61,991 nt of DNA from a virus (IMGVR_UViG_3300030328_003511:1-61991), one strand, 5' to 3'. Positions 1 to 46,593 are shown, counted from the stretch's first letter. Notes: a model not told the origin generated them from the sequence alone. Numbers and translations: made by a program.

Positions 1-100
1 AACAGCGCCCACAATTTCTATTTGATACCCTTTATATTTAAACGGAATCATATTTATTTAATCTCCAATTTGTAATTGGTTCTTAATTCGTTTGATTCAC
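1..100. repeat. Terminal direct repeat, copy 1 (circular closure)
   Basis: Identical to 61892-61991 except position 99 (a vs g). ORF 54..407 runs directly into the start of ORF 61736..61942 across the junction. Confidence 0.95.
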
Positions 101-407
101 CGCCTATTAGATATTGTCTATACAATTCCGGGTTCTCTTCCTTGAATTTAGTTATATCAAATCTAGTAGTTTTTTTATTTAATAACTGAATCGATCCAAT
201 ATAAACGCCCTTCTTACCAATTGTTTTTTGGTGTTTAAATTGAAAGTAGTTATCGTTATTTTCACAATATTCAACTAATTCTGGTTTTAATAATTTGTTA
301 ACCTTCGAATAGTTTTTTATTGTGTCTGAAAATTGACTGTAGACTAATGCCTTATAGTCAATTTTTTTGCTGTTAACATCTGACAGCATTTGTTTAAGTG
401 TTTTCAT
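54..407 (-). CDS. Hypothetical phage protein
   Basis: Strong RBS (AAGGAGG). C-terminal RFDITKFKEENPELY motif resembles YqaJ-associated C-terminal segments. Confidence 0.7.
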   Translation of the reverse strand: MKTLKQMLSDVNSKKIDYKALVYSQFSDTIKNYSKVNKLLKPELVEYCENNDNYFQFKHQKTIGKKGVYIGSIQLLNKKTTRFDITKFKEENPELYRQYLIGGESNELRTNYKLEIK

Positions 408-510
408 AATTAAACCTCCTTTGTTAGTTTGTTTTTTTATTTAACACTATCTCATTAATATAAAATTTAATAAGATACGTCAAGAAGATTCGAAAAAAAA
501 ATAAAAATAT

Positions 511-538
511 TTACAGCCTACAACCGTAGGCTGTAAAT
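511..538. terminator. Hairpin, probable intrinsic terminator
   Basis: Inverted repeat ttacagcctac-aacc-gtaggctgtaa, followed on the minus strand by T-rich sequence. Confidence 0.55.
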
Positions 539-553
539 TAGAATCATTCTAAA
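537..553. promoter_or_regulatory. Irr/ICE-like palindrome, one mismatch
   Basis: ATTAGAA-TCA-TTCTAAA versus ICE consensus TTTAGAA-N3-TTCTAAA. Confidence 0.5.
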
Positions 554-644
554 CAGCCGTGAAAATTACTATTAAAATGATTAATACTGTTACTGGATAG
601 AAAACTACCGCCCGAATAAAAAAAGCCAGTAATATATCTATCAT
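549..644 (-). CDS. Small hydrophobic peptide (31 aa), paralogue of 5898..5996
   Basis: Manual translation MIDILLAFFIRAVVFYPVTVLIILIVIFTAV; ATG overlaps the stop of 641..1327. Confidence 0.7.
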   Translation of the reverse strand: MIDILLAFFIRAVVFYPVTVLIILIVIFTAV

Positions 645-1327
645 GCAGCAGCCTTAATAAATCGATTGTTTATGTTACGTCCTAAGCCCTTAGCAATGAG
701 ACCGACTATAACACCCGCTGGATCTTTAAAGCGCAGGTCGTGTTTATCTCCATTAATCACTTTTTTTTGCATCCAGATTCGAGGTAACACGTCCTTGAAA
801 ACTACCGCAACATTAACAGATTTTTTTATAGCTTTTTTTATATCTGCTAAGTTACGGCCCGAGTCTGAAAACGTCTGATGGTAGTTCTCCAGATCATGAT
901 CTAAATAATTCAAAACTTTTGTATAATCGTAGAATTGAACGTCCTGGTGAATCTCCATCAGTGAGCCGCCGCCGTCTACTTTCATTCGATGGAATGGCAG
1001 GTCACTTGTCCCGTTTAAACGTACAGCAAATTTATAACCTTGATTCGCAGCCCGTTTTTTTAGTTGCTGGATCTCCAGGCTTAAATCATGTAAGAACCCG
1101 TTTTTATTGGTCCAGAAATATTTTGTTTTATTTATTCTGGCCTTCTGGACAGAGCCCATCTGGCCCCGTCCCGATGTATTTAAACAAGCTGCAGCGCATT
1201 CCGGAGAAGCTTTAGGACATACATTCTTGCCGCTTAGATCGAATGGCGCTAGATGCAAAATAGCTGTTTTAAACCCTAACGCTTCACCCTTAGCCATCTT
1301 AGTTTGAGAATAATAATTTAATAACAT
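641..1327 (-). CDS. GP88-like (mycobacteriophage gene 88 family) Cys-cluster protein, possibly Fe-S binding
   Basis: CPxxxxxCxxxC, RLNGTSD and FYDYTK motifs recalled for this family. Confidence 0.6.
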   Translation of the reverse strand: MLLNYYSQTKMAKGEALGFKTAILHLAPFDLSGKNVCPKASPECAAACLNTSGRGQMGSVQKARINKTKYFWTNKNGFLHDLSLEIQQLKKRAANQGYKFAVRLNGTSDLPFHRMKVDGGGSLMEIHQDVQFYDYTKVLNYLDHDLENYHQTFSDSGRNLADIKKAIKKSVNVAVVFKDVLPRIWMQKKVINGDKHDLRFKDPAGVIVGLIAKGLGRNINNRFIKAAA

Positions 1328-1557
1328 TATAGATCCTCCACTAATTTTTTTAATTTATCTAATTTATTTTCATAATCAAACGGAGCCCTTAAAAAATGAA
1401 ATAGATCCATATCACCTATTTTTATATATTCGCTCCGACTGTAACTATAGCGCTCCTGCTCAAGCATTTTTTCAATATCACACGGCGTTTTTTTGCCAGT
1501 AATTATTTTTATTATTTTTGCCAATTGAATTAGAGTCATGCCTTCACCTCCTCCCAT
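1327..1557 (-). CDS. Hypothetical protein (true start probably the Met near 1539)
   Basis: Coupled to neighbouring ORFs in the operon. Confidence 0.55.
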   Translation of the reverse strand: MGGGEGMTLIQLAKIIKIITGKKTPCDIEKMLEQERYSYSRSEYIKIGDMDLFHFLRAPFDYENKLDKLKKLVEDL

Positions 1558-1778
1558 CTGCCGGCTGCATTCTTAGCCAATTTTATATTGTGACTATAGA
1601 CGCTGCCCGCTTCACTGAATAAGCCCACCTCTGCCCCGTTTGAATGAATTAAAATTATTTTTTTAATTCCTTTACCCTGGACCGGTGATTCAAGTAGTTT
1701 ACCAGTAACCAGCAAGAACGGATGCAATTGATCGCTCTTAATTTCTTGGCCCTTCTTTAGATCTTTAAAGTTTATCAT
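1536..1778 (-). CDS. Hypothetical protein
   Basis: RBS AGGAAGG and an upstream sigma70-like promoter. Confidence 0.65.
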   Translation of the reverse strand: MINFKDLKKGQEIKSDQLHPFLLVTGKLLESPVQGKGIKKIILIHSNGAEVGLFSEAGSVYSHNIKLAKNAAGRWEEVKA

Positions 1779-1796
1779 TTTTTTTTCCTTCCTGTT

Positions 1797-1834
1797 ATCC
1801 CACGGTTATAAGATAAAGCTCTATAAGCTGTCAA
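1797..1834 (-). promoter_or_regulatory. Sigma70-like promoter with ATCYYAT-N4-RTRRGAT operator-like palindrome
   Basis: Minus strand TTGACA-N18-TATAAC; ATCTTAT-aacc-GTGGGAT overlaps the -10. Confidence 0.65.
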
Positions 1835-1870
1835 CTATTATTTTTAAATAATTCCAGGCCCTGGACTCAC

Positions 1871-1940
1871 GGCCCCCGGTTAGATTCAGTTAGATTCAGT
1901 TAGCCCCGGTTAGCTCCAGTTAGGCCCGGTTAGATCTAAG
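1871..1940. repeat. 10-bp tandem repeat, GTTAG six times at exact 10-bp period
   Basis: GTTAG at 1879, 1889, 1899, 1909, 1919 and 1929. Confidence 0.9.
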
Positions 1941-2147
1941 GACCAGAGAAAATGTTAATGTTAAGAATTAAAAAAAATCCCATATGAATAGTTAATGATA
2001 CACGCATATATAATGTGAATAACCGAAAAGAAAAAAATCCCATATGTAATGTTAATAATTGAAAAGAAAAATTTTGCCATATGTGAATTTAACTATTCAC
2101 TTTTTTTTCCATATTAAAGGTTAATGGTTCAATGTTAATGAAGCATG

Positions 2148-2178
2148 TTAATGACTATCCCATAGGGATAGTCATTAA
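2148..2178. repeat. Perfect inverted repeat, 14-bp arms and 3-nt loop
   Basis: ttaatgactatccc-ata-gggatagtcattaa. Confidence 0.9.
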
Positions 2179-2196
2179 GTCATGCGTGAGGCGAGG

Positions 2197-2559
2197 TTAT
2201 TGCGTCAAGATTTTAAATGCTTCAGTCAAGTTTAGGTTCTCACAAACTAGAACCAATTCTCTCGGTTCACGAACCACGAATAATTGTAGATTTTTGGAAG
2301 CCCTTTGCGAGAGGTCTTCTCGCAAGATAAAAGAAGTGCCTTTGTTTTGAAAATGTTTTAAATGCCAATTTATTTGGTACTTGGAAAGACCACAATTCTT
2401 GACATCATTAGACTTTAATTCTATCCAAATACTTTTACCATTTATCAAGTAAAATACATCTGGAATACCATTAATAGTGTTGCTTTCTATACGAAATATT
2501 TGACCTTTTAATTTTAATTTTTTAATCCTTTTCCATAAATTACTTTCATTTTTTTTCAT
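2197..2559 (-). CDS. VRR-NUC / Holliday junction resolvase-like PD-(D/E)XK nuclease
   Basis: N-terminal E, GIPD...WIELK and Q..W motifs. Confidence 0.75.
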   Translation of the reverse strand: MKKNESNLWKRIKKLKLKGQIFRIESNTINGIPDVFYLINGKSIWIELKSNDVKNCGLSKYQINWHLKHFQNKGTSFILREDLSQRASKNLQLFVVREPRELVLVCENLNLTEAFKILTQ

Positions 2560-2591
2560 TGTGTTATTCGGTCAATAACACAACAAAATTG

Positions 2592-2741
2592 TTAATTCAA
2601 TACTGACCTAAAGCAAAGGCAAGTTCCACTAATTCCTAACAAAAAACCGATAGCCAAATCGCCAGAAAAAAGAATTACAATACCAGAAATTGCTATTATA
2701 AAACTAGTTAATACAATAAATAAATGTAAAGCAAAATCCAT
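2592..2741 (-). CDS. Small membrane protein, 49 aa, two hydrophobic segments
   Basis: Manual translation MDFALHLFIVLTSFIIAISGIVILFSGDLAIGFLLGISGTCLCFRSVLN. Confidence 0.6.
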   Translation of the reverse strand: MDFALHLFIVLTSFIIAISGIVILFSGDLAIGFLLGISGTCLCFRSVLN

Positions 2742-2743
2742 AC

Positions 2744-3040
2744 TTAATGATTTTGAGTTATAAATCTTGTTGTATTGGGTATAGATATATAAGTTGTTGC
2801 GCTTTGAATATCTTCAATAGAATTAATAGAAGAATAATTTTTTTTATATTCTTCTAGATTTTCATATTCAGAAAAATCACCACATAAGGCAATTACATCT
2901 AGTTCTATTTCTTGTCCTGTATCTTGCTCTAAATCTTCTAAATGATTATACAAAGCAGTCAGTCCTTCATAAGTAAAATTATCTGGTCTTAACTTTATAA
3001 ATGCGTTTCTAAAATCATATTCATTAATTGATTGTTTCAT
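2744..3040 (-). CDS. Conserved hypothetical phage protein
   Basis: NFTYEGLTALY...ELDVIALC pattern; coupled ORF. Confidence 0.7.
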   Translation of the reverse strand: MKQSINEYDFRNAFIKLRPDNFTYEGLTALYNHLEDLEQDTGQEIELDVIALCGDFSEYENLEEYKKNYSSINSIEDIQSATTYISIPNTTRFITQNH

Positions 3041-3249
3041 TTTAAATAATCCTTGTTAATAATAAATTGTTTTATCAATTTTAAGTAAGTTGGGTTTTGA
3101 GTTCTTAAAATTGCTCTAAAGATTGTTGACTGTTCTTCTATGTTTTCCAAATCATAAAAAAGTTTGTCAATATCGTTTACTAAATCCATTTTCTTTAAAA
3201 GTGTTTTAGTAAAAACATTTTTTTGTGTGTTTGTTTCTTGCGTTCCCAT
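3037..3249 (-). CDS. Hypothetical protein
   Basis: RBS leader ACAGAAAGG and upstream promoter. Confidence 0.65.
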   Translation of the reverse strand: MGTQETNTQKNVFTKTLLKKMDLVNDIDKLFYDLENIEEQSTIFRAILRTQNPTYLKLIKQFIINKDYLK

Positions 3250-3268
3250 TTTTTCCTTTCTGTTGATA

Positions 3269-3302
3269 ATGGGATATTATGGGAGATATAAAAAAATGTC
3301 AA
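3269..3302 (-). promoter_or_regulatory. Sigma70-like promoter with TCCCAT direct repeats
   Basis: Minus strand TTGACA-N17-TAATAT with two TCCCAT copies 10 bp apart. Confidence 0.65.
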
Positions 3303-3311
3303 TTAAATTAG

Positions 3312-3328
3312 TTTAGAATGGTTCTAAA
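3312..3328. promoter_or_regulatory. Perfect Irr/ICE-like box
   Basis: TTTAGAA-TGG-TTCTAAA, just upstream of a TTGACA -35. Confidence 0.6.
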
Positions 3329-3361
3329 AAAAGAGGGCTTCCACTCTCGCTTCCACCCTCT
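3326..3361 (-). terminator. Terminator-like hairpin with GGAA/GGAA internal loop and GAGA tetraloop
   Basis: Minus strand AGAGGGT-GGAA-GC-GAGA-GT-GGAA-GCCCTCT followed by a T run. Confidence 0.6.
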
Positions 3362-3425
3362 AATTTAGCAGTCCTTTAGCTTTCCTTTATATACTAGCTT
3401 CAAGGAAATACAGGTTCTAGCTTAC

Positions 3426-3797
3426 CTATTCTTCGTCAAGAATTTTGTTAAGTGCTTTTGCAATCTCATTAGCATATGCGCTATCGCATGCAAACGCAAT
3501 ATCCTCTATTTTGCCATTTTGCATATCTCTTTTTACAATATGCCCTTCAGTAAAAAATATATTTTCTTCATCATCTTCATCATCTTCATCTTTAGCTTCT
3601 ATTTCTTCTAAAGAATATTCATTATCATGCCCACACTCTACATTATAATCTTCTTCCCAATCATTGTTTCCTTCATTTTCTACAATTTCTTGGGCTTCAT
3701 CTTCATCTTTAGCTTCTATTATTTTTGTTTTAACTAAAGTTCCCGAAGTTATATCTTCTATTATTTTTGCTTTGTATTTTTTCATTCTTCCTCCCAT
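3426..3797 (-). CDS. Acidic hypothetical protein with DpnD/PcfM-like N-terminus
   Basis: MKKYK...IEAKDEDEA pattern; internal duplication of IEAKDED. Confidence 0.55.
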   Translation of the reverse strand: MGGRMKKYKAKIIEDITSGTLVKTKIIEAKDEDEAQEIVENEGNNDWEEDYNVECGHDNEYSLEEIEAKDEDDEDDEENIFFTEGHIVKRDMQNGKIEDIAFACDSAYANEIAKALNKILDEE

Positions 3798-3967
3798 ACA
3801 TCATCAATTACAAAGCCACTATCATCATTTGAATTTTGCAATTCGTCCCAATGTGAAATTCCTATTTTTTCTGCTTTTTTAATTGCATCTTTACTATCTT
3901 CAGCTTGTACATTTATTTGATACTGTTCGTAAACTGTAAAGCCACCTATAACTTTGTATGTTTTCAT
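3782..3967 (-). CDS. Small acidic DpnD/PcfM-like protein
   Basis: MKTYKV...VQAEDSKDA pattern. Confidence 0.55.
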   Translation of the reverse strand: MKTYKVIGGFTVYEQYQINVQAEDSKDAIKKAEKIGISHWDELQNSNDDSGFVIDDVWEEE

Positions 3968-4005
3968 ATTATCCCTTCAGTAAAAAATATATTTTCTTCG
4001 TCCAT

Positions 4006-4275
4006 TTATTCCTCCCTATGTTTTTCGCAATCATCACACCAATAGTTGCCATTTTCAGATTGATAGCTTTCACCTTGATATTTATTATTTTTGTCAACCC
4101 AAACTAGCCATTGTAAATTATCGCTTTTGCATTTATTACATTTAATATCTTTATTAACCTCTTTCTTTTTAATGATTATTTTTTCTAGTTCTGAAATAAA
4201 ACCAGAATATTCGGAAGTCATATCCTCGCCATATACTTTGTTCCAAGCGTCCATTATTTCTTTAATTGTCAACAT
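4006..4275 (-). CDS. Hypothetical protein with zinc ribbon
   Basis: CNKC and WCDDC motifs; RBS GAGG precedes the internal Met at 4275. Confidence 0.6.
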   Translation of the reverse strand: MLTIKEIMDAWNKVYGEDMTSEYSGFISELEKIIIKKKEVNKDIKCNKCKSDNLQWLVWVDKNNKYQGESYQSENGNYWCDDCEKHREE

Positions 4276-4420
4276 TATTCCCTCTCGCTTGTTTATTTTC
4301 TTTTTCTGCATCTATATGGTCGTAATCAATAATTTCATAATTAAGTTTATTATGAAATTCTTTTGGAATTACAACGTCAGTACAAACTCCACCCTCTATA
4401 TATACTTTAATTGTTTTCAT
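4262..4420 (-). CDS. Hypothetical protein, 52 aa
   Basis: Manual translation MKTIKVYIEGGVCTDVVIPKEF...; fills the gap in the operon. Confidence 0.6.
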   Translation of the reverse strand: MKTIKVYIEGGVCTDVVIPKEFHNKLNYEIIDYDHIDAEKENKQARGNNVDN

Positions 4421-4436
4421 ATTATTTCTTGCTTTA

Positions 4437-4469
4437 TTAAAGGTGTTGTGCAGAACACAACACCTTTAA
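4437..4469. terminator. Stem-loop downstream of 4476..5021
   Basis: ttaaaggtgttgtg-cagaa-cacaacacctttaa. Confidence 0.55.
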
Positions 4470-4475
4470 ATAAGA

Positions 4476-5021
4476 TTATTTTTTATAACCTAAAGATTTG
4501 AAACTATTCCATTGAATACCAACATATCCCAACATTTCATTCAGTTGTTTAGTTAGTTCGCCTTGTGTTGAAGCTTCCATTATTAAATCATCACAAGCTT
4601 CTTCAAGAGTTTCAAGTTTATTAAGTTTTTTGCCTTGTTCAGTTTTAGCTACCTCTCTTTCAGCAAACTTCTCACTCCACTCTCTCATTTGTTCACGACA
4701 TTTTTCAGAAGTAATTTTTTTACTTTCGCCATTTCTAAATTCATAATTTAATGAATCTCTATATGCTACATTACTCCTACTATGTTTTTTAAAAAAGCTA
4801 GTAGCTGACCTAACTGCGTTGTCATGCTCTAGTTCTGCTTTAGCTAATTGGTCTATAACTTTATCAGCACCAATTTTTTTTGACAAAGCTACATATCCTT
4901 TTTGCGCCATGTCAGAAACTAAAGACTTCAACATTAATTTTTCATCTTCAATTAATGGGTTTAGTTTTTTTCTTACTTTTTGTCTTAAATGGTCTTGCGT
5001 TCTTACTTGTACTCCACTCAT
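4476..5021 (-). CDS. Hypothetical helical or coiled-coil protein
   Basis: 181 aa ORF with RBS leader ACAGAAAGG. Confidence 0.75.
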   Translation of the reverse strand: MSGVQVRTQDHLRQKVRKKLNPLIEDEKLMLKSLVSDMAQKGYVALSKKIGADKVIDQLAKAELEHDNAVRSATSFFKKHSRSNVAYRDSLNYEFRNGESKKITSEKCREQMREWSEKFAEREVAKTEQGKKLNKLETLEEACDDLIMEASTQGELTKQLNEMLGYVGIQWNSFKSLGYKK

Positions 5022-5222
5022 AACTACCTTTCTGTTGTTAGTTTTAAAGTGTATGTTTTATGTGAGGAAAAACATACAAAAACCCAAATTTCATTTTAAG
5101 GTTTGAAATTCAAACTTACCTAATTATTTTTATATTACCCTTGACTAGCCACCACTATTACAGATGGACATTACAATCTAAAGCAGTTCTTTGGACATCT
5201 TAAAAAACAATTAAAAATTCTT

Positions 5223-5819
5223 TTAGCCAATAGTGAACCCTCCACTATTTTTACAAAAATCAGCAAACTCTTTTACATTTTCTACTGAAAAAGGATAACT
5301 TGCGTCAGAATTTCTTTTTTTATAAATTCTATCCCATGTTTTTTTGTCATCTATTGGAAAATCGCATGGTGCAAGATTTTTCTTCTTCATTTTCTTGCAT
5401 ACTCTTTTAGAAAAAAGAGATAATTCTTTTTCAACTTTGTCGTTCTGAAGCTCTAAAGTCTTTCTTCTTGCTTCATAGGTTGCTTCAAATCGTTTAGTAT
5501 GACCTTTTTTTATTAGCGCATTTAATTGATTAGCAATTTGTGTAGCATGTTCTTCATCAACTATATATTCATCATTATACGACCAATTTTTTTTATCTTT
5601 TTCATCAATAACTTTCGTATGTTCTAATACATAGAAAGCTAAAGGTCGCCACCACCAAACATTATTTCTAAAATAAGTACCAGATTGAGAAGTATATTTT
5701 TCTCTTTCTTCAAAATATTTTTCTACTTCTTCTTTTGATAAGTCGTGTAATCTATCTGGTCTTTCTGGTGCTTGCACTTTTATATTTTTTGGGTTTAGCC
5801 CTGTTAAATCAAATCCCAT
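5223..5819 (-). CDS. Conserved hypothetical phage protein
   Basis: MGFD...YFRNNVWWWRPL...F..FC..SGGF pattern; RBS leader. Confidence 0.8.
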   Translation of the reverse strand: MGFDLTGLNPKNIKVQAPERPDRLHDLSKEEVEKYFEEREKYTSQSGTYFRNNVWWWRPLAFYVLEHTKVIDEKDKKNWSYNDEYIVDEEHATQIANQLNALIKKGHTKRFEATYEARRKTLELQNDKVEKELSLFSKRVCKKMKKKNLAPCDFPIDDKKTWDRIYKKRNSDASYPFSVENVKEFADFCKNSGGFTIG

Positions 5820-5849
5820 AATTACCTTTCTGTTAGTTAATTAATAATT

Positions 5850-5883
5850 ATCCCATGAATATAGGATAAAATAGTAATGTCAA
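5850..5883 (-). promoter_or_regulatory. Promoter with operator-like palindrome
   Basis: Minus strand TTGACA followed by ATCCTAT-attc-ATGGGAT. Confidence 0.6.
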
Positions 5884-5897
5884 GTATAAAAAGTAAT

Positions 5898-5996
5898 TTA
5901 TTTGAAAATAAAATAGACCAATAAAGCTAATAAAATAAGGGTTGGAACAGGGTAAAATACTAATAATCTAATAAAAAGAGCAAAAATTGTTTCCAT
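5898..5996 (-). CDS. Small hydrophobic peptide (32 aa), paralogue of 549..644
   Basis: Manual translation METIFALFIRLLVFYPVPTLILLALLVYFIFK. Confidence 0.7.
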   Translation of the reverse strand: METIFALFIRLLVFYPVPTLILLALLVYFIFK

Positions 5997-6170
5997 AGTG
6001 TAAGTAGGAATAAGGATAATTTTTTAAAAATCAAGAAGTAAATTTTTTTATTTTTGAATAGATAAAAGACCATAGCACTACCAACAAAAAAGCAATCAAC
6101 ATTAACCCAATAAAGAAAAAATAAATAATATTAAAGAAGGCAGTTTCAAGAAAAGTAAATATTTTTTTTA

Positions 6171-6497
6171 TCAAATTTTCTTAATTTCTTTTATTACTGA
6201 ATTAGGAATAATTGTAGAATTTCCAATAGTTTCAATTCTTTTTTTATCTTCGGATAAAGAATAATCGCCAAATATTCTAGTAATACCTTTAGATTGAGAT
6301 AATAAATGTCCTTTAGTAATACAGGTTGCTAAAGTGCTATTTTTTATTTGTTCAAAACTACTCCATGAGCTATCACTAACAATATCAAACCACTCAACAG
6401 AAACCATAGGATATTTTTCTATCTCATTATAAATTTTTTTTGGGATAGAAATTTTTTTATTTTTTTTAAAATTTTTTTTTAATCTATTTTTTCTCAT
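6171..6497 (-). CDS. Conserved hypothetical phage protein
   Basis: VEWFDI.SDSSW...G...IP pattern. Confidence 0.7.
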   Translation of the reverse strand: MRKNRLKKNFKKNKKISIPKKIYNEIEKYPMVSVEWFDIVSDSSWSSFEQIKNSTLATCITKGHLLSQSKGITRIFGDYSLSEDKKRIETIGNSTIIPNSVIKEIKKI

Positions 6498-6503
6498 TCA
6501 AAT

Positions 6504-6599
6504 ATTCCCATAAAGATAGTCAGCTATTCATTTTATTTCCCATATGGATAGTCACCTGTTCATTTTATTTCCCATATGGATAGTCACCTATTCATTTTT
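6504..6599. repeat. Three tandem 32-bp repeats
   Basis: Unit tttcccatatggatagtcacctrttcatttta; CCC at 6507, 6539 and 6571. Confidence 0.9.
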
Positions 6600-6687
6600 A
6601 TTTGTTGTTAACACAGAAACAATGCCGATTGAAGTATTTAAATGGCTGTTGTGAACCTCATTAAAAACAGTCATCCAATTATCTGTT

Positions 6688-7227
6688 CTAAGTAATTTCT
6701 TTTGGCGTAACGTCAATGATGTTTTTGGCTTCTCCGATTTTACCTTCAAGTTCGGATAACCTCTTTTCAAGTTGCTCACGACTCATTCCCTCCAATCCAA
6801 CATGTGTAACTTCTTTCTTATCTACAAACATACCGGCCATTTGACCAGATCTATATTCAGCATTTACTGCTACTGAAAATTGTTTTTTGTCTTCTGCTTT
6901 CTTACTTAATGTTTCAAATCTTTTATATTTTTTTAATTTATCACCTTCATGTTTTTTTAACTCTTGGTTATACTTCATTTCCATATAACGCACTACATGA
7001 GGGTTCTTGTTAGGATCGGTTAATCTGCTCGCAATCTCTGTCGGGCCCTCTGGTTTATTAGATTGATACCCGGCTCTCTTTGCTGCTTCAACTTTACTTA
7101 TCTCTCCCCAATTACTTACATATATATCTACAAACGCTTTTTGTTTCAGCGTTAATTCAGAAGTAGATTTTAATACATTTTTTCTTTTGGGCATTCTTGA
7201 CCGGATACTATCATAATTTTTTCCCAA
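6688..7227 (-). CDS. terS: Terminase small subunit (probable start MPKRK near 7194)
   Basis: LTLKQKAFV..Y...EAAKRAGY HTH signature and C-terminal GMFVDKKEV. Confidence 0.7.
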   Translation of the reverse strand: MGKNYDSIRSRMPKRKNVLKSTSELTLKQKAFVDIYVSNWGEISKVEAAKRAGYQSNKPEGPTEIASRLTDPNKNPHVVRYMEMKYNQELKKHEGDKLKKYKRFETLSKKAEDKKQFSVAVNAEYRSGQMAGMFVDKKEVTHVGLEGMSREQLEKRLSELEGKIGEAKNIIDVTPKEIT

Positions 7228-7452
7228 TACACTTCCTTACAAACAATTTTTTATAAAAATTTAAGCACAAAATGCCTCCTCTGTATCTTATTTCTGTCAT
7301 ATTCCTAAAACTGTCTAGGAATTTCCCAGTGTTTTCCCAGTGTAAAATGCTCTAGAAGTATTGATTTAATTAGGATTTTCCTAGTTTCCTAGAAAAAAGT
7401 CTGTTTTAAAAAAAAAAAAATAAAATGTTTGTAAGAAACAGTATTGGGAAAA
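7219..7452. repeat. Long-range imperfect inverted repeat enclosing TTTCCYAG repeats
   Basis: ttttcccaatac...cttacaaaca pairs with tgtttgtaag...gtattgggaaaa; four inner TTTCC(C/T)AG copies. Confidence 0.7.
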
Positions 7453-7584
7453 TGAACCGGGAGCCGTGGGACGTGGTTCCTGTACCCACTATAATTATCG
7501 AAAAAAAATTTTTCGCTTTCTAAGAATCAACGGTCACGAACCACGAGGTTTGACAAAGGGTATTCAATAACGTAATACTGAAGT

Positions 7585-7666
7585 AAGCAAAAATTTTCAT
7601 TTTTGCCTCTTTGTTAGTTATCTAGGTCATTATCTTTTTTTAAAATTGTTTCAATAATGGCCTAGA
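7585..7666 (+). ncRNA. Candidate small RNA 1 (hairpin, anti-SD linker, hairpin)
   Basis: TTGACA(7550)-N17-TAATAC upstream; two stem-loops; linker cctctttgttagtt. Confidence 0.4.
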
Positions 7667-7704
7667 AATACTTCTTGTAATTTCTGAAAATACGTATATC
7701 TATA

Positions 7705-7781
7705 TAGATATGTTTCATATATCTAATATGAACCTTTCTGTCTTAGGCGGTGCTAAAGATAGCTCCTTAATGCCGCCTAAG
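7705..7781 (+). ncRNA. Candidate small RNA 2, same architecture
   Basis: 5' hairpin containing TTTCAT, linker aacctttctgt, 3' stem cttaggcggt/gccgcctaag; promoter weak. Confidence 0.35.
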
Positions 7782-7810
7782 TTAAAATCCCCCTCAGAGT
7801 TAAAATTTTT

Positions 7811-8284
7811 TTATCCGCCGTGACTAAAATCTTTTAAGAATTTATCTACATAGACATTATCTGCATCCATAATCTGTCTTCTTTTGTTTTCAATATTTCT
7901 TCTTAATTCTCTCCTGGAATCTAAATCACTTTCTTCCTTAAGTCTTTGAAATAACTTACTATATTCGTGCCAAAGAAAATGCCTTCGTTTAAACTTTATC
8001 AGTCCATCTCTTAAAGCTTTTAAATATCTATACCTAACGTTATCCGGTTCCCAACCTGCCCACCAACAAATTTGTTCGAAGTCTTTAGATCTCGCTATCC
8101 AGAAATGAGCATCGCATTTATTGAGACTTGATTTTCTATCCCCGGATAATAATCTAACATCTTCAAAAGCATTTAAGATTACATGCCGCCAAAGTTTTTG
8201 TTCATTACATACATGATTTTCAGCAATTATATCAGACGCAATATTAGTGCCCATAAGCTTTAACAAGTCTAGAGAGTAGATCAC
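7811..8284 (-). CDS. Conserved hypothetical protein
   Basis: EQKLWRHVILNAFED...DF..IC..AG pattern. Confidence 0.7.
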   Translation of the reverse strand: MIYSLDLLKLMGTNIASDIIAENHVCNEQKLWRHVILNAFEDVRLLSGDRKSSLNKCDAHFWIARSKDFEQICWWAGWEPDNVRYRYLKALRDGLIKFKRRHFLWHEYSKLFQRLKEESDLDSRRELRRNIENKRRQIMDADNVYVDKFLKDFSHGG

Positions 8285-8459
8285 GGTAATGGCCTTTCGA
8301 TTTTCTTAAATGTAAACGATCGGCGACCTCGTAATGTTTATAGACATCATCAATTAGTATTGTGATGGCAGCACCTTCTAAGTTAGTGTCAGAGATATAC
8401 GATTGTATATCTTTGAAATCTTGAAACATCTCTTTTTTAGTATAGTTATCCATTCTCAT
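8244..8459 (-). CDS. Hypothetical protein
   Basis: Coupled ORF. Confidence 0.6.
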   Translation of the reverse strand: MRMDNYTKKEMFQDFKDIQSYISDTNLEGAAITILIDDVYKHYEVADRLHLRKSKGHYRDLLSRLVKAYGH

Positions 8460-8767
8460 ATTTTAACATCTTCTTTTCGATATGAGCTTATGTCAATAAC
8501 GTTGGACTTGTTATTTTTTATTTTTACTATTACTTTTTTTGTTTGCTTTGTTTTCTTGCTGTGAAAAGAATATAGATCATTGGAGTCGGTTAAGAATTGT
8601 GGACCTAATTCGGTGTAACCAAATTGAACCCCATTAAGTAAAGAAAAAACTACGGTTTGATATAGTTTAAATTGATTCGGTGTAAGCTTCTCTGCCGCTA
8701 AGACAGAAAGCCTAGTTAAATCAGTGATACCATCCTTTTTCTTTCCCATTAATATAATCCCATGCAA
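8456..8767 (-). CDS. Hypothetical protein
   Basis: Coupled ORF. Confidence 0.6.
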   Translation of the reverse strand: MHGIILMGKKKDGITDLTRLSVLAAEKLTPNQFKLYQTVVFSLLNGVQFGYTELGPQFLTDSNDLYSFHSKKTKQTKKVIVKIKNNKSNVIDISSYRKEDVKI

Positions 8768-8957
8768 TTTTAAATAACATAACTTGTTGTGATTCTGATT
8801 GTTGGCCGTGAAACGTGGTTCCTGCTCCGTTGCAAATAATACAAGAAACTATCGACTTAGAAAAAGGTGTAATAATATATCCTGTACCTTCGCAGTCTTT
8901 ACATTTATTGTAGTTGCTTCTATTAACACTCATATAAAAAAAATAATTTAGTTGCAA
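8721..8957 (-). CDS. DnaJ-type zinc-finger protein
   Basis: CKDCEGTG and CIICNGAG (CxxCxGxG) repeats. Confidence 0.7.
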   Translation of the reverse strand: MQLNYFFYMSVNRSNYNKCKDCEGTGYIITPFSKSIVSCIICNGAGTTFHGQQSESQQVMLFKIAWDYINGKEKGWYH

Positions 8958-9019
8958 GTTAAAATTATAAAATTAAATTTAGATGGGATCAATGGGTTGG
9001 CTTATAACCCACGACAAAA

Positions 9020-9574
9020 TTAATATAAAAGTTCGGAATTAAAAGCTATTACACTCTTTCTTTCACTCGCATTTGTCTTAGAAGAATGCAAAATATATGC
9101 AGGAAAAGTAATGATTTGGCCCTCTTTAACTTCATATTCATACTCTTTGTTGTTAACTAATATAGAAGTTTTAAAATTTAAATCGGGAAGTTCTAAAAAA
9201 TAAACATTAGTTAAATTAGTTCTAGGATGAGTATGATAAAAATGACGAGAACCTTCACCATATTGCTGGAACCAAGTTGCACTATTAGCGATATTTTTTA
9301 CATTAAAATATTTCTGGTGTTCTGCTATACAACGATTTCCAATGTTATCCCAAAAATATTTATGATATTTTCTTTCGAAGTTTGGAGGAAGGTTATAATC
9401 TGTTTTGCTTACATCTTCGTAAGGGTTATTAGGTATCTCATTAATTAAATCTAATATCTTATCTTTATGCCGGTCATGATCCGGAACATCATAGATTAAA
9501 AGTTCAGTTTTAAGTTCTTTTGTTTGCATATTTTTTAAAGTGACACATCCATAACCAATTCCAAAAAGAACCAC
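9020..9574 (-). CDS. Fe(II)/2OG oxygenase-like protein, HxH type (start probably near 9529)
   Basis: WFQQY...HTH...VYFL...FPAYILH...R motifs. Confidence 0.8.
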   Translation of the reverse strand: MVLFGIGYGCVTLKNMQTKELKTELLIYDVPDHDRHKDKILDLINEIPNNPYEDVSKTDYNLPPNFERKYHKYFWDNIGNRCIAEHQKYFNVKNIANSATWFQQYGEGSRHFYHTHPRTNLTNVYFLELPDLNFKTSILVNNKEYEYEVKEGQIITFPAYILHSSKTNASERKSVIAFNSELLY

Positions 9575-9734
9575 CTCTTCTTATATGAAATCTATTTAAC
9601 CATTTAATTTCTGTTGGTGTATCTTTACCATATAAATTTTCTGTGCTTTTAATATCATACTCAACTTGTAATTTTTTTCTTTCTGGCTTAGAGAGTGCCA
9701 TAAATAATTTATATGCTTTTCTATTATTTTTCAT
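9510..9734 (-). CDS. Hypothetical protein
   Basis: Coupled ORF. Confidence 0.55.
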   Translation of the reverse strand: MKNNRKAYKLFMALSKPERKKLQVEYDIKSTENLYGKDTPTEIKWLNRFHIRRGGSFWNWLWMCHFKKYANKRT

Positions 9735-10243
9735 TAGATCTCTACAATTATATTTAAATTAATTCTATATGTTTCTGTTGATGGCCCATGTCCAGCATGA
9801 GGTAATTTACTTTTAAAAATTTTTGCTTCATCTTTCTTATCTTCTACTTTCTCGTCTTCAACCTGTAAGTAACCATCACAAGTATTAAAAGAATAAATGA
9901 TAGTCAGAAAATTTTCATCTTTGTGGTCTATATGCATATTACATTTTTGATCTTTTGTATAATAGTTCCACATAAATCTCTCTATACGTTTATATTGTAA
10001 ATTAATTTTTTTACATATTAACTCGGTGATTATAAATGCATACATATTAAGTTTAATTTCATTTTCATTTTTAGGTGGTATTGTACATTTACTCATACCT
10101 TCAAATTGCATATTATTTGTAAAAAGTTTATTTTGACTTTCTTTTGTTGTGCTCCCTATTTCAAACTCCAAAGATTTTAATTCGTTTTTAATGGTATCAA
10201 TAATGTTATCGGTTAATATATAATTAACTTTTTGTATTTTCAT
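9734..10243 (-). CDS. Fe(II)/2OG oxygenase-like protein, HxD type
   Basis: HID...TIIY...H.G...R.NLN motifs. Confidence 0.8.
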   Translation of the reverse strand: MKIQKVNYILTDNIIDTIKNELKSLEFEIGSTTKESQNKLFTNNMQFEGMSKCTIPPKNENEIKLNMYAFIITELICKKINLQYKRIERFMWNYYTKDQKCNMHIDHKDENFLTIIYSFNTCDGYLQVEDEKVEDKKDEAKIFKSKLPHAGHGPSTETYRINLNIIVEI

Positions 10244-10406
10244 TTTTATTAAATTGTTTATTTGTTTTATCTCTATATTTTTCTGCCGTAGTTTTATCAG
10301 TGAAAGCTTTAGAGTTAAAGGAATGCTTATTTAATCTCTTTAATAGAGTAGATAAATTAATTCTTTCTAATCTTTTTTTACCATGTCGTACTATGTATAT
10401 CTTCAT
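10224..10406 (-). CDS. Hypothetical basic protein
   Basis: Coupled ORF. Confidence 0.5.
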   Translation of the reverse strand: MKIYIVRHGKKRLERINLSTLLKRLNKHSFNSKAFTDKTTAEKYRDKTNKQFNKNENTKS

Positions 10407-10618
10407 TAGTTTTGGGTTTCTTGACGCATTTTTAAAAATCTAAATTTTGCAATTTTTAACATACGGTCAAATAAAGGTTCTGCTTTGACCGTATGTATTT
10501 TATTTCTTAATTCTCCGTTAACATATAACGTAACGGTGTCAGTAGTATGATCGAGTTCAATTGTAAAAAACTCTTTAGCTTTTATTTTTTTTGGGTCCAT
10601 CTTTCGATTCACCACCAT
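10406..10618 (-). CDS. Hypothetical protein
   Basis: Coupled ORF. Confidence 0.6.
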   Translation of the reverse strand: MVVNRKMDPKKIKAKEFFTIELDHTTDTVTLYVNGELRNKIHTVKAEPLFDRMLKIAKFRFLKMRQETQN

Positions 10619-10802
10619 TTAAAAGTTTTTTCTTAAAAGCTTCTGGTGTCATCTTATGTTTTTTAGCTTGATGCCCAACATAGTCATTGAGAATTTTAGA
10701 GATCATTGCTCCGGGAGCTCTAAACTTTTCTATACACATGCCTTTAAGAATTAAATAATCTTCTTTTTTAATTGCAACGGACTTCCATTTATTTATGTCC
10801 AT
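10575..10802 (-). CDS. Possible ribbon-helix-helix DNA-binding protein
   Basis: N-terminal beta strand (KSVAI) followed by two predicted helices, CopG/Arc-like pattern. Confidence 0.5.
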   Translation of the reverse strand: MDINKWKSVAIKKEDYLILKGMCIEKFRAPGAMISKILNDYVGHQAKKHKMTPEAFKKKLLNGGESKDGPKKNKS

Positions 10803-11091
10803 CTTTAACCTCCATATCCGGGGTTAACTTAAGAACATCTAATTTTAATCTCATGTCTTTTTTATCTTCGACTGTTTCGTAGATATTTAAAAGTTCTTTA
10901 AGTTTATTATTTTCTTCTGTTAACTTTTTTAGATTTTTTTGAAGTTCATCTAAATTGTTAAACAGACTTTTCATCGCTTCTTCTAATCTACCTAGCGAAT
11001 CTAAATTACCTTCGGGTTGTTGTCCTAATGGTAAGTCTAAGCTAACTGTAGGTAATATTTTCTCTTTTAGTTTATTTAATGTCAGTGCCAT
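10789..11091 (-). CDS. Coiled-coil hypothetical protein
   Basis: Heptad leucine pattern; RBS GGAGG. Confidence 0.6.
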   Translation of the reverse strand: MALTLNKLKEKILPTVSLDLPLGQQPEGNLDSLGRLEEAMKSLFNNLDELQKNLKKLTEENNKLKELLNIYETVEDKKDMRLKLDVLKLTPDMEVKDGHK

Positions 11092-11359
11092 TTATGTCCT
11101 CCTTTGTTGGTTCATTGTTTCGGCCTTCGATTTCGTCTTCTACTAAGATTGTTGCAATAGTTTTAGAAATTGGATAATGTTTTCTTCCTATCCCATCTAT
11201 AAAATGTATATTTGCAATACCATCTATAAGCATATCCAAATGTAATGAATCTTCAATAGGGCTACCAAACACATCGCTTGTTGGAATAGCCGCTAATTGT
11301 TTATCCAAATCAGTTATGATATTCTCTAGTATAAGACTTTTACTTTTTAATTGCTTCAT
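11072..11359 (-). CDS. Hypothetical protein
   Basis: First gene after a divergent promoter. Confidence 0.65.
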   Translation of the reverse strand: MKQLKSKSLILENIITDLDKQLAAIPTSDVFGSPIEDSLHLDMLIDGIANIHFIDGIGRKHYPISKTIATILVEDEIEGRNNEPTKEDINGTDIK

Positions 11360-11362
11360 GAA

Positions 11363-11395
11363 ATCTTACATATATGGGATAAACAAGAAAGTCAA
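11363..11395. promoter_or_regulatory. Divergent promoter region with operator-like palindrome
   Basis: ATCTTAC-atat-ATGGGAT; TTGACT on the minus strand. Confidence 0.6.
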
Positions 11396-11402
11396 ATAAA
11401 TT

Positions 11403-11615
11403 ATGAAATATATTTTAACAATTTTATTATGTACGGCAGTAGAAAAAACATGCCTTCCTCCTCATACATTTGAGGAAACTTACCCCGATATATATACATG
11501 CCACTTAGACGGGTATAAAAAATCGATAGACAAAATTAAAGAAATAGGTAGTGTAGAAGTAAATAAGCATCAAATTTATACATCATTTTGGTGTAGGGAG
11601 TTAAAGACTATTTAG
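11403..11615 (+). CDS. Small Cys-containing protein with hydrophobic N-terminus
   Basis: MKYILTILLC...; four Cys. Confidence 0.65.
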   Translation: MKYILTILLCTAVEKTCLPPHTFEETYPDIYTCHLDGYKKSIDKIKEIGSVEVNKHQIYTSFWCRELKTI

Positions 11616-11627
11616 AATGATTCTAAA
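11611..11627. promoter_or_regulatory. Perfect Irr/ICE-like box
   Basis: TTTAGAA-TGA-TTCTAAA spanning the stop/start junction. Confidence 0.55.
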
Positions 11628-11877
11628 ATATATACTATTAGGTACTTTATGCTGGAATTTTCCAGATACAGGTACTCAATGCTCACAATATCTAGTAGAT
11701 GACCTCTCAGATGGTGCTATATGCAAGGAAAGAGCTTTAGCTGTTGGTAGGCACAATAAGGCCAAGATCAAAGAATTAGGGGGTTCTATGGAAGAATACA
11801 ACGTACATTGCATGGCTATTGATAAAGAAGGATATAATGTTGACGAATCCTTTAGAATATCTTATACTATCTTATGA
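11617..11877 (+). CDS. Small Cys-containing protein, similar to 11403..11615
   Basis: MILKYILLGTLC...; four Cys. Confidence 0.65.
   Translation: MILKYILLGTLCWNFPDTGTQCSQYLVDDLSDGAICKERALAVGRHNKAKIKELGGSMEEYNVHCMAIDKEGYNVDESFRISYTIL
11840..11875 (+). promoter_or_regulatory. Sigma70 promoter, probably leaderless transcript, with ATCTTAT direct repeats
   Basis: TTGACG-N17-TATACT, 5 nt before ATG 11874; ATCTTAT at 11859 and 11869. Confidence 0.65.
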
Positions 11878-12116: not shown

Positions 12117-12252
12117 GCATAAATGGTCGGCTGAGTTAATGACCAATGGTAATTGCACAGTTGATATGCTTAAGACAGAAGCTGATATTAAATCAAAAAG
12201 AAATGCGATTAAATATCAAGATGTACAAGAAACTTTAGCCTTCGCTGGTTAA
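12067..12252 (+). CDS. Hypothetical protein
   Basis: RBS GAGGAG. Confidence 0.6.
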   Translation: MLSPEKIKLLKELQHLEHKWSAELMTNGNCTVDMLKTEADIKSKRNAIKYQDVQETLAFAG

Positions 12253-12680
12253 TTTTTCTTAGCTTTAATAAAAGGAAACTTTTGTCCTAGGGCTTCTATC
12301 GGTTTTTTAAACTCATAGTGATTTATAATTTTAAATAATTTTTCTCTTTTACTTACTGAATAAGGTATAAATAATTTTGCTAATTGAAGAGCTTTTTGGT
12401 GAGAGCATCGCCACCTCCATTGATCCTTTTTAGCTAGAGAACCTTTTGGAATTCCTTTAAAATTAATAGAGCCTACTTTAACAATATCATAAAAATTTTT
12501 TATACAATCTAAATCTGCCATAGCTATTTCCATTGCAATATTCCATTTAAGATAAACTTTACCACTTGGTTTTTTACATTTGTATTGCGCATAATTAATA
12601 TTACCTTCTCCATCAAATAATCCTGCAGCGTAAGCAATCATATCTTTGTTATCGTGTGGAAAATTTTTTTTATTTTGCAT
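12249..12680 (-). CDS. Free-standing single-motif LAGLIDADG homing endonuclease-like protein
   Basis: YAAGLFDGEG motif; C-terminal PY...K pattern. Confidence 0.8.
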   Translation of the reverse strand: MQNKKNFPHDNKDMIAYAAGLFDGEGNINYAQYKCKKPSGKVYLKWNIAMEIAMADLDCIKNFYDIVKVGSINFKGIPKGSLAKKDQWRWRCSHQKALQLAKLFIPYSVSKREKLFKIINHYEFKKPIEALGQKFPFIKAKKN

Positions 12681-46096: not shown

Positions 46097-46105
46097 AAGT
46101 AGTTA

Positions 46106-46591: not shown

Positions 46592-46593
46592 AG

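Follow-up and report, generated by a model that had tools for sequence, protein, structure and literature searches.

Predicted Irr-type operators at transcription-unit boundaries of an HTVC023P-type pelagiphage

A 62-kb phage genome contains three near-identical palindromes that are probably real Irr-type operators, most likely bound by the Irr protein of the host and co-opted at the boundaries of phage transcription units. The window, i.e., the whole stretch of 61,991 nucleotides that was analysed, had been read as phage DNA in the initial annotation, and rightly so: it is a complete HTVC023P-type pelagiphage, a phage of the alphaproteobacterium SAR11. No integrase was seen in a Pfam search, as in a virulent-type phage. 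Most of the genes lie on the minus strand.

The palindrome TTTAGAA-N3-TTCTAAA is found exactly at 3312–3328 (box 2, TTTAGAATGGTTCTAAA) and 11611–11627 (box 3, TTTAGAATGATTCTAAA), and with one mismatch, at the outermost base, at 537–553 (box 1, ATTAGAATCATTCTAAA; TTTAGAATGATTCTAAT on the minus strand). The centres are TGG, TGA, and TCA, in agreement with the T(G/C)(A/G) pattern given in the initial annotation, which had also estimated far fewer than one perfect copy by chance; base composition indeed gives an expectation of 0.003 exact copies for the window. Exact copies averaged 0 in 100 first-order Markov simulations, sites with at most one mismatch averaged 0.13 with a maximum of 1, and none of the simulations reached 3. 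Allowing two mismatches, the window contained 8 sites, a number that none of 100 shuffles reached; as the shuffles contained 2.73 such sites on average, the five sites with two mismatches are near chance level. Among the 14 perfect palindromes of the 7-N3-7 type in the window, the one with the TTTAGAA arm was the only one to recur.

The motif had been assigned to the iron control element (ICE), and it does match the published ICE or Irr consensus, given as TTTAGAA-N3-TTCTAAA, with TTTRGAAYNRTTCYAAA as the Bradyrhizobiaceae profile, in the regulon description of PMC1698941. Two window sites satisfy this profile exactly and one with a single mismatch, all with a Y-N-R centre. In Rhizobiales, among them Bradyrhizobium japonicum, and in Rhodobacterales the ICE is described as the binding site of Irr (Rudolph et al., 2006, as cited in PMC1698941; Rodionov et al., 2006), and Irr as a regulator that represses under iron depletion, binds near promoters, and is inactivated via haem delivered by ferrochelatase (PMC3413700). 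The phage boxes share with this element the 17-bp inverted repeat, including the Y-N-R centre, and may share its location near promoters; however, they lie on a lytic phage genome instead of at host iron genes, and the one conserved copy lies over a stop codon with a terminator behind it, while the ICE overlaps the promoter.

For Candidatus Pelagibacter ubique, the published accounts report both Fur and Irr (PMC2864753), a diverged Irr ortholog with one to two candidate ICE sites (PMC1698941), and a predicted minimal Irr regulon (Rodionov et al., 2006, PMC1698941). We found an irr ortholog in 39 of 81 sampled Pelagibacteraceae genomes, many of which are incomplete. The best NCBIfam match of the 139-aa Fur-family protein of SAR11 is IrrA (1.6e-38, 131.7 bits), under the 150-bit cut-off. 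This sub-threshold score and the presence of irr in only 39/81 genomes count against host Irr as the binder. All 30 SAR11 irr loci examined had at least one box (≤2 mismatches) beside irr, and in about 102 kb of such loci 59 sites lay beside irr against 4 elsewhere. The box at irr is located between a TATAAT and the irr ATG, directly in front of the latter; the promoter of katG, the next gene, has two boxes, one 3 nt upstream of its TTGACA and one over the −10. To judge by these positions, the host uses the shared motif as a repressor site on irr and katG. Across whole SAR11 genomes no excess of the motif was detected (4–7 matches with at most one mismatch, 8–13 for the reversed control), a further point against host Irr as the binder.

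A matrix built from the host sites has T/C at position 8 (0.82/0.17), A/G at position 10, and the flanks TA(G)...(C)TA; as these sites were preselected by their likeness to the consensus, independence is limited to the centre and flank columns. The weakest host site scores 15.6 bits on this matrix, and exactly three window sites equal or exceed that value, namely box 2 (25.6 bits), box 1 (24.3 bits), and box 3 (23.3 bits). The next-best site scored 11.8 bits, and 200 simulations gave a mean of 0.025 sites above the threshold. In 936 kb of relatives of the phage we counted 59 box matches, compared to 5 for the reversed control. Of 59 phage matches chosen by their arms alone, 51 had the Y-N-R centre (24% expected), and the right flank nTA was present in 33 of the 41 distinct phage sites above the host-matrix threshold. 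The same extended motif, with Y-N-R centre and nTA flank, occurs at the host irr and katG sites and at the phage sites, and the sequence match reaches beyond the arms to positions that had not been used in site selection.

Box 1 lies at a junction that is kept among relatives. Transcribed from the minus strand, a GP88-family gene (641–1327; PF17338, Pfam E = 1e-37; PHROG 1617) is the last large gene of an operon that ends at the box. Its TGA stop overlaps the ATG of a small hydrophobic ORF of 31 codons (549–644, minus strand) in an ATGA, and the TAG stop of this ORF is formed by bases 3–5 of box 1. An intrinsic terminator follows directly (509–538, minus strand; hairpin of 13 pairs and T-run, −21.2 kcal/mol, z −5.0), and then a sigma-70-like promoter read from the sequence (TTGACG-17-TATTAA, 455–483, minus strand) that would serve the next unit. 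This unit starts with a predicted ORF of 117 aa without a function match (54–407, minus strand), followed in relatives by the large terminase. The terminator separates the box from the next −35 (spacing 53 nt), and the centre of the box lies about 97 nt upstream of the inferred transcription start. Such a non-classical position for a repressor counts against host Irr as the binder. The spacing in relatives is 43–65 nt, mostly 43–45 nt, with a conserved TTGACA 43–45 nt after the box in 17/51 distinct contexts; no second box covering this promoter was present in the relatives' contexts compared.

Positional conservation in related phages, proposed as a check in the initial annotation, was seen for box 1 but not for the other two. 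In most relatives the gene next upstream of the box is the GP88-family gene, and the junction box is kept at the same position in 39 of the 40 loci that cover the junction, in the order GP88-family gene, end of the small hydrophobic ORF (its stop likewise within the box), terminator, promoter. In 29 distinct junction sequences all seven bases of the left arm and five of the seven of the right arm are invariant, at a mean column identity of 60%. The hairpin and the coding sequence beside the box vary; several different, unrelated hairpin sequences occupy the place of the terminator. Box 1 is, on this comparative evidence, a conserved phage site under strong purifying selection at the boundary between transcription units. 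Box 2 had no counterpart in 80 relatives' loci, its context being unique to the window phage, and the position of box 3 is occupied by a box in only 2 of 37 relatives with the gene (L066 and L067). That two of the three window sites are unconserved also speaks against host Irr as the binder.

Box 2, outside any ORF, precedes the operon that ends at box 1. A terminator-like hairpin (3332–3361, minus strand), the T-run of which enters the box, has only moderate support as a terminator because of its z of −1.24 (−17.4 kcal/mol for 3305–3375). At 9 nt downstream of the box lies a TTGACA-17-TAATAT promoter (3274–3302, minus strand), which places the box centre at about −53; the left flank TAG equals the host flank. 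The first gene under this promoter is a predicted ORF (3037–3249, minus strand), from which the operon of small genes extends down to the GP88-family gene and box 1. Box 2 thus abuts the −35 as the upstream katG box does. The Pelagibacter irr-katG unit belongs to the same host clade and has the same extended motif; however, host sites mostly overlap the −10 or the transcript start, and no phage box overlaps a −10.

Box 3 covers a stop/start junction of two plus-strand genes at which no clear promoter was seen. Bases 3–5 of the box are the TAG stop of a 70-aa gene (11403–11615; PHROG 19893, homologs in 24 loci). Its centre provides the ATG of an 86-aa gene (11617–11877; homologs in 37 loci), and its right arm encodes the codons M-I-L-K. 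The box had been described as lying over the start of a Cys-rich gene, and the 86-aa product does contain 4 Cys.

These junctions raise the alternative that the box acts as an RNA hairpin, its stop and start serving translational coupling or RNA processing, or as a recombination linker between gene modules. In its favour, the left-arm TAG ends the preceding ORF in three different contexts and the central ATG opens the following one in two, and what lies downstream of the conserved box, genes and hairpins alike, varies greatly. Against it, the box alone folds into a weak hairpin (−2.8 and −2.9 kcal/mol), which is absent from the best fold of longer stretches around boxes 1 and 2, and box 2 lies outside ORFs. 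The arms are either invariant or broken without compensation, e.g., where the outermost A is replaced by T, G, or C, or a C by A in L041 and L054, while the neighbouring terminator changes with compensation. A 23–26-bit match to the host operator would moreover have to be a coincidence. We regard an RNA or linker function as very unlikely. A structured RNA or terminator hairpin as the identity of the box is ruled against by the weak stem, the uncompensated changes, and the absence of Rfam matches in the window.

On the favoured reading, in which the boxes are operators of host Irr, the binder is the Fur-family sensor of iron and haem status in SAR11, and via haem also of peroxide. In an iron-poor cell Irr would be active and the phage boxes would be occupied. 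At 3312 it would abut the −35/UP region of the promoter from which the small-gene/GP88 operon is transcribed. On the 537 site it would cover the last codons of that operon, ahead of the terminator and with the next unit starting about 97 nt further downstream, and could halt read-through as a roadblock or modulate the promoter of that next unit, which in relatives leads to terminase and structural genes. At 11611 it would occupy the stop/start junction of the small plus-strand genes. With plentiful iron and haem, Irr would leave the DNA and the box-adjacent units would be fully expressed. Repression is the favoured direction of control, as every well-defined host site has repressor geometry.

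The distribution of the box among phages bears on who binds it. The window phage has three boxes and five near-complete relatives have 1–3 each. Only two of seven cultured pelagiphages checked contain an exact box: HTVC134P (Autographiviridae) and HTVC035P, both of other lineages than the window phage and both with the box in non-coding terminal regions. None of five phages of other Alphaproteobacteria had one. No box was found in HTVC023P and HTVC027P, which both infect the irr-bearing strain HTCC1062; in HTVC023P the small hydrophobic ORF ends in a TGA overlapping the −35. The box is therefore dispensable, and such box-free relatives on an irr-bearing host count against host Irr as the binder. 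Exact boxes also occur within coding regions and in viral contigs unrelated to the window phage, and this, like the low share of cultured phages with a box, speaks against the host-Irr reading.

The palindrome could be the operator of a phage-encoded DNA-binding protein and merely resemble an Irr box. Most small genes near the sites are without known function, box-free relatives infect the same host species, and exact boxes occur in many viral contigs without a homolog of the window phage's proteins, one class of which has other flanks (TTA...TAA) and several copies per contig. However, a six-frame search of the window phage found no Fur-family gene, and Pfam and PHROG annotation found neither a DNA-binding domain beside the boxes nor a repressor-like domain. 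The likeness to host sites includes the centre and flank bases, the box is present in three unrelated pelagiphage lineages, and GP88, the sole family shared near it, is also present in the box-free HTVC023P, HTVC115P, and Bylgja and in mycobacteriophages. Exact boxes in HTVC134P and HTVC035P are better explained by a shared host factor than by a shared phage protein, and we consider a phage-encoded binder improbable.

Host Irr might also be bound in trans, the replicating phage copies acting as decoys that soak up a scarce regulator; host irr, katG or rubrerythrin, and other Irr targets would be de-repressed to the benefit of the phage. Host sites usually have one TTATAAA arm, while both arms are canonical in the two perfect phage boxes, which resemble the ideal palindrome more closely. 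The conserved site does not occlude a promoter in the classical way, and the place of the box differs between lineages while its sequence is kept, as expected if presence alone matters. PMC12753301 reports higher levels of host irr and iron-uptake transcripts upon infection by an HTVC023P-type phage, but the phage in that infection study is HTVC027P, which has no box, so this host response needs none. Moreover, there are merely 1–3 boxes per genome, and the strict keeping of one junction (39/40 loci) points to a local role in cis. Titration of Irr as the purpose of the boxes seems unlikely to us.

The boxes had been linked to roughly ten Fe(II)/2OG oxygenases, which is too high: Pfam gave 7 matches with E ≤ 1e-3, of which 6 exceed the curated cut-off. 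No box lies directly before a 2OG-Fe(II) oxygenase gene, such genes (e.g., 9020–10243 and 14541–15137) being located elsewhere, and by Pfam and PHROG none of the box-flanking genes has a known function. The link to lysis commitment suggested in the initial annotation found no support. Ferrochelatases are present in some relatives. A broader scenario is conceivable but in our view less likely than not: several unrelated SAR11 phage lineages, including the ocean's most abundant known pelagiphage group, would have acquired near-consensus Irr operators independently, either for timing phage expression by the cell's iron, haem, or peroxide state or for Irr titration that resets the response of the host, in an "iron module" together with oxygenases and ferrochelatases.

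Lytic marine phages carry boxes for host regulators; in cyanophages, for example, pstS is preceded by PhoB boxes, and NtcA sites occur as well. The Irr boxes would likewise be operators of a host nutrient regulator borrowed by a lytic marine phage, although Irr binding is predicted here, regulator and nutrient are different, and the boxes do not precede a matching auxiliary metabolic gene. A PhoB/pstS-type box is ruled out, as no function-matched gene directly follows any box. Iron-repressed toxin genes are found on temperate phages, with DtxR acting on corynephage tox and Fur on stx1. There, too, a host iron regulator acts on phage-borne DNA, for which the counterpart here is predicted; those are, however, single prophage cargo genes, whereas the Irr boxes lie at operon boundaries of a virulent-type phage. 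The stoperators of cluster A mycobacteriophages are asymmetric, occur 20–30 times per genome, and bind a repressor that the phage itself encodes. Like the phage boxes they are short operator-like sites at gene ends over stop codons with a possible transcription block, but the boxes are palindromic, number 1–3 per genome, and have no evident phage repressor. Stoperator-type identity is ruled out by the low copy number, the palindromic site, and the lack of a repressor-like domain in the Pfam, PHROG, and six-frame searches.

Given its near-perfect Irr sites, the phage may read or disturb the iron status of the host. If Irr binds, a simple DNA–protein contact would make the expression of viral genes, or the way the infected host responds to iron and peroxide, dependent on iron status. 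SAR11 and its phages are among Earth's most numerous host–virus pairs, and iron is limiting across large ocean areas; an iron module would wire viral production in such waters directly to a host metal sensor. The boxes also provide an entry point to the transcription programme of SAR11 phages, about which little is known, and HTVC035P on HTCC1062 and HTVC134P on HTCC7211 are cultured systems suited to the idea. Only one RNA run contained, as contigs, a small part of the window. We found no paper that deals with Irr boxes of phages.

The window (61,991 bases) represents the whole virus record, with a CheckV completeness of 100. Its sole close match among cultured phages was Pelagibacter phage HTVC023P, which infects Candidatus Pelagibacter sp. 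HTCC1062; the phage and the window share gene order. Most genes are located on the - strand, and Pfam searches of the window identified DNA polymerase A, a UvrD-type helicase, a primase, both terminase subunits, a capsid protein and GroES; neither an integrase nor an RNA polymerase was found. The initial annotation had counted roughly ten Fe(II)/2OG oxygenases. Such enzymes are indeed encoded, but their number was lower: seven Pfam matches to 2OG-Fe(II) oxygenase families were obtained at E ≤ 1e-3, six of them above the curated cut-off.

The palindrome TTTAGAA-N3-TTCTAAA was confirmed in the window as two exact copies at 3312-3328 (box 2) and 11611-11627 (box 3), and with one mismatch at 537-553 (box 1). 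The claim that such copies would rarely occur by chance was borne out, as base composition predicts 0.003 exact copies, and among 100 Markov simulations none contained an exact copy and none contained three copies with up to one mismatch. Five additional sites with two mismatches correspond to chance level. Box 1 contains the TAG stop codon of a small hydrophobic ORF of 31 codons (549-644, - strand), which is coupled by an ATGA overlap to the GP88-family gene (641-1327, - strand). A strong terminator (-21.2 kcal/mol, z -5) comes next, and beyond it the TTGACG promoter described earlier was present as TTGACG-17-TATTAA, ahead of gene 54-407. Box 2 lies 9 nt ahead of TTGACA-17-TAATAT on the - strand, a promoter that includes the -35 element seen earlier near this site, and a hairpin with a T-run lies immediately 5' of the box on the same strand. 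On the + strand, box 3 spans the TAG of ORF 11403-11615 and the ATG of ORF 11617-11877, and so covers a gene start as originally described. None of the oxygenase genes detected by Pfam in the window adjoins a box.

Metagenome contigs differed from the window close to boxes 1 and 2. The loop of the box-1 terminator (522-525) reads AACC in the window; contigs of three metagenome runs carry this loop in reverse orientation, as GGTT. In the A-run of the box-2 promoter spacer (3264-3266) metagenome contigs carry one inserted A or T, which would lengthen the spacer from 17 to 18. Three DNA runs covered both boxes without differences inside them, in runs that vary little anywhere. In metatranscriptomes, one run contained 6% of the window's words and yielded a single contig, at 1707-1929.

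Relatives were retrieved from IMG/VR via the small terminase subunit, and the best 80 loci of 224 were used. In these 936 kb, 59 boxes with at most one mismatch were found, compared to 5 in the reversed control, and they were distributed over 50 of the 80 loci; scoring by matrix gave 64 sites in 55 loci. The majority were located at the junction of box 1, 3' of the GP88 homolog and 5' of either the homolog of gene 54-407 or the large terminase gene. A box was present in 39 of the 40 loci covering this junction, which are not all independent and comprise 28 distinct sequences. In 32 of the 39 loci with a box, a small hydrophobic ORF precedes the box, which includes its stop codon; in the other 7, the GP88 gene stops and the small ORF starts (ATG) inside the box. 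When 29 distinct sequences were aligned, all seven bases of the left arm, five of seven in the right arm and the A of the nTA flank were invariant, at a mean column identity of 60% over the alignment. The terminator separates the conserved box from the next -35, which is 43-65 nt further downstream, and a second box, even a weaker one, was not detected over that promoter.

Conservation of position, suggested in the initial annotation as a check, was therefore observed for box 1 and not for the other two sites: homologs of the genes flanking box 2 were absent from the 80 loci (best 80 of 224), and box 3 recurred in 2 of the 37 loci with the gene (relatives L066 and L067). Two of the three window sites are lineage-specific. 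The right arm of box 3 provides the codons M-I-L-K of the gene family of ORF 11617-11877. Boxes also recurred at another position, 5' of the small terminase gene: 12 of the 61 loci had one there, and the window has none. Five near-complete relatives carried 1-3 boxes apiece.

We also considered whether the palindrome could act as RNA. Folded on its own, the box reaches only -2.8 to -2.9 kcal/mol, and the alignment of relatives contained no compensatory changes in its arms; an RNA hairpin was rejected on account of this weak fold and the missing covariation. No Rfam family was found in the window. A single mobile cassette of box and hairpin was rejected as well, since the hairpins of sites 1 and 2 are unrelated and several hairpin types occur in the relatives, where the terminator beside box 1 exists in several unrelated versions. 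A phage protein had been raised as the possible partner of the boxes; a phage-encoded Fur or Irr was ruled out, as no Fur-family gene was present in six frames of the window. A phage ferrochelatase was likewise rejected as a partner, being absent from the window (Pfam) and from the five box-bearing near-complete relatives.

The iron control element (ICE), the operator of Irr, has the consensus TTTAGAA-N3-TTCTAAA, and its profile in Bradyrhizobiaceae is TTTRGAAYNRTTCYAAA (Rodionov et al., 2006, PMC1698941). Both Fur and Irr are encoded by the P. ubique genome (Smith et al., 2010, PMC2864753). Retrieving SAR11 genomes via a 16S probe, we found neither an exact box nor a genome-wide motif excess in five genomes (4-7 one-mismatch matches, compared to 8-13 in the reversed control). 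Matches with a Y-N-R centre formed one cluster, on both sides of a 139-aa Fur-family gene that is followed by katG. The best NCBIfam matches of this gene were IrrA (1.6e-38; 131.7 bits, short of the 150-bit cut-off) and Irr. The box signal in SAR11 genomes is local to irr. The irr box follows TATAAT and ends 7 nt 5' of the irr start codon, and the katG promoter contains two boxes, one 3 nt upstream of TTGACA and the other over the -10; the host irr and katG boxes occupy repressor positions. Of the 81 Pelagibacteraceae genomes sampled, many being incomplete, 39 had an irr ortholog (E ≤ 1e-36). All 30 irr loci retrieved had at least one box (up to two mismatches) beside irr, with 59 sites beside the gene versus 4 elsewhere in about 102 kb. 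In the SAR11 loci L230-L259, a conserved TTAATA-16-TATAAT promoter lies ahead of irr, with the box just after this promoter, and beyond irr comes the boxed promoter of the next gene, katG in the SAR11 genome G004. SAR11 irr and its boxed neighbour are a compact self-regulated unit.

Because the host sites had been selected by their arms, the centre and flank columns alone allow an unbiased comparison with the phage. Host sites have T or C at position 8 (0.82/0.17), A or G at position 10, and the flanks TA(G)...(C)TA. Among phage sites picked by arms alone, the Y-N-R centre was found in 51 of 59, compared to 24% expected, and the right flank nTA in 33 of 41 distinct phage sites above the threshold of the host matrix, a weight matrix built from the boxes beside irr. 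Applied to the window, this matrix gave three sites and no more that reached the weakest host score, 15.6 bits, namely at 25.6, 24.3 and 23.3 bits; the next-best site reached 11.8 bits, and 200 simulations gave a mean of 0.025 sites at or above 15.6 bits. A chance origin of the boxes was rejected on composition and on both the Markov and the host-matrix simulations. With the consensus, the host irr and katG boxes, and the centre and flanks in agreement, the identification of the boxes as Irr-type operators, proposed in the initial annotation, is well supported in silico.

Several results weigh against this reading: the boxes missing from many cultured phages, the distance and terminator between the conserved box and the next -35, and the lack both of oxygenase genes beside the boxes and of a ferrochelatase in the window and five box-bearing relatives. 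HTVC023P contained no box and lacked the box-plus-terminator module; here the TGA end of a small ORF overlaps TTGACA. The second cultured representative of the type, HTVC027P, had no box either. Five further cultured pelagiphages were checked: HTVC134P and HTVC035P each had one exact box in a non-coding terminal region, and none was found in Bylgja, HTVC115P and HTVC120P. The boxes of HTVC035P (L394, record 35984-36000) and HTVC134P (L395, record 42483-42499) lie at the non-coding right ends of their records, and both phages belong to lineages other than that of the window. If the record ends join, the box would be upstream of the leftmost genes, including a GP88 homolog; the context in HTVC134P is shared with the IMG/VR locus L272. 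Five phages of other Alphaproteobacteria (HMO-2011, CRP-6, CRP-143, a Rhizobium phage and a Mesorhizobium phage) were without a box.

An exact-match scan of IMG/VR yielded at least 123 loci, and among the matches listed 42 of 123 carried homologs of window proteins, in many differing contexts. Where the box lies in frame within coding regions of related phages, it always reads F-R-T-I-L-K/N among the matches listed, be it in the polymerase exonuclease domain (L287, L290, L319, L330), in the protein upstream of a DUF3310 gene (L279, L291, L306) or at codons 6-11 of a small protein (L266, L311, L322); as these cases come from an exact-box search, selection and ascertainment are both possible. 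A second class among the matches listed consists of 23-bp palindromes, TTA + box + TAA, sometimes in several copies per contig (examples of the class are L276/L277, L300/L301 and L342), and 35 of its 38 boxes were in contigs without window homologs. This class possibly has a different binder. Given the TTA...TAA class and the in-frame boxes, an exact match in viral DNA is not necessarily a SAR11 Irr site. In L342, which had no match among cultured phages, two boxes are 427 bp apart, and the upstream ORF has its TAG stop inside the box; a phage irr between them was rejected, as the intervening ORF was not Fur-like by eye. In L273 and L312, an exact box is located in the middle of a non-coding region rich in repeated CCGATACC/GGTATCGG units; in a related phage, this region is a possible origin or iteron region.

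ICE motifs near promoters are Irr binding sites; haem inactivates or degrades Irr, with ferrochelatase as the most efficient haem delivery, and reactive oxygen species promote the inactivation (Peuser et al., 2012, PMC3413700). Given that the host sites have repressor geometry, the likeliest mode of action would be that Irr occupies the phage boxes in iron-poor cells. Bound there, it would dampen the adjoining promoter at box 2, stop read-through at box 1 into a unit that in relatives leads to terminase and structural genes, and block passage through box 3. Alternatively, Irr may activate, or the boxes may serve as decoys. Infection by HTVC027P raises host irr, zur and afuABC (PMC12753301). 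For 80 HTVC023P-type genomes, 2OG-Fe(II) oxygenase genes of eight kinds, along with partner ferrochelatases, were described in a study that also recalls the interaction of Irr with ferrochelatase (PMC9599517); its main text on these genomes contains neither "promoter" nor "palindrom". No report of Irr boxes in phages was found in the literature searched on pelagiphages and Irr or on phage iron control elements. The operator type and the use of host-regulator boxes by phages are already known; an Irr box conserved in pelagiphages with this arrangement of stop codon and terminator seems not to have been described before.

Further features of the window were observed. A LAGLIDADG homing endonuclease gene (12249-12680) lies directly 3' of the DNA polymerase gene, and HTVC023P has an "endonuclease" at the matching position. 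Upstream of the small terminase gene, a 580-bp non-coding stretch (7228-7810) combines a conserved G+C-rich segment with long T and A runs; it had no Rfam match and could be a packaging or regulatory region. At 41573-47115, three 2OG-Fe(II) oxygenase matches are clustered with a carbamoyltransferase, a tryptophan-halogenase-family protein (E 1.5e-69) and an M15 peptidase (Pfam), which looks like a small-molecule or surface-modification module.
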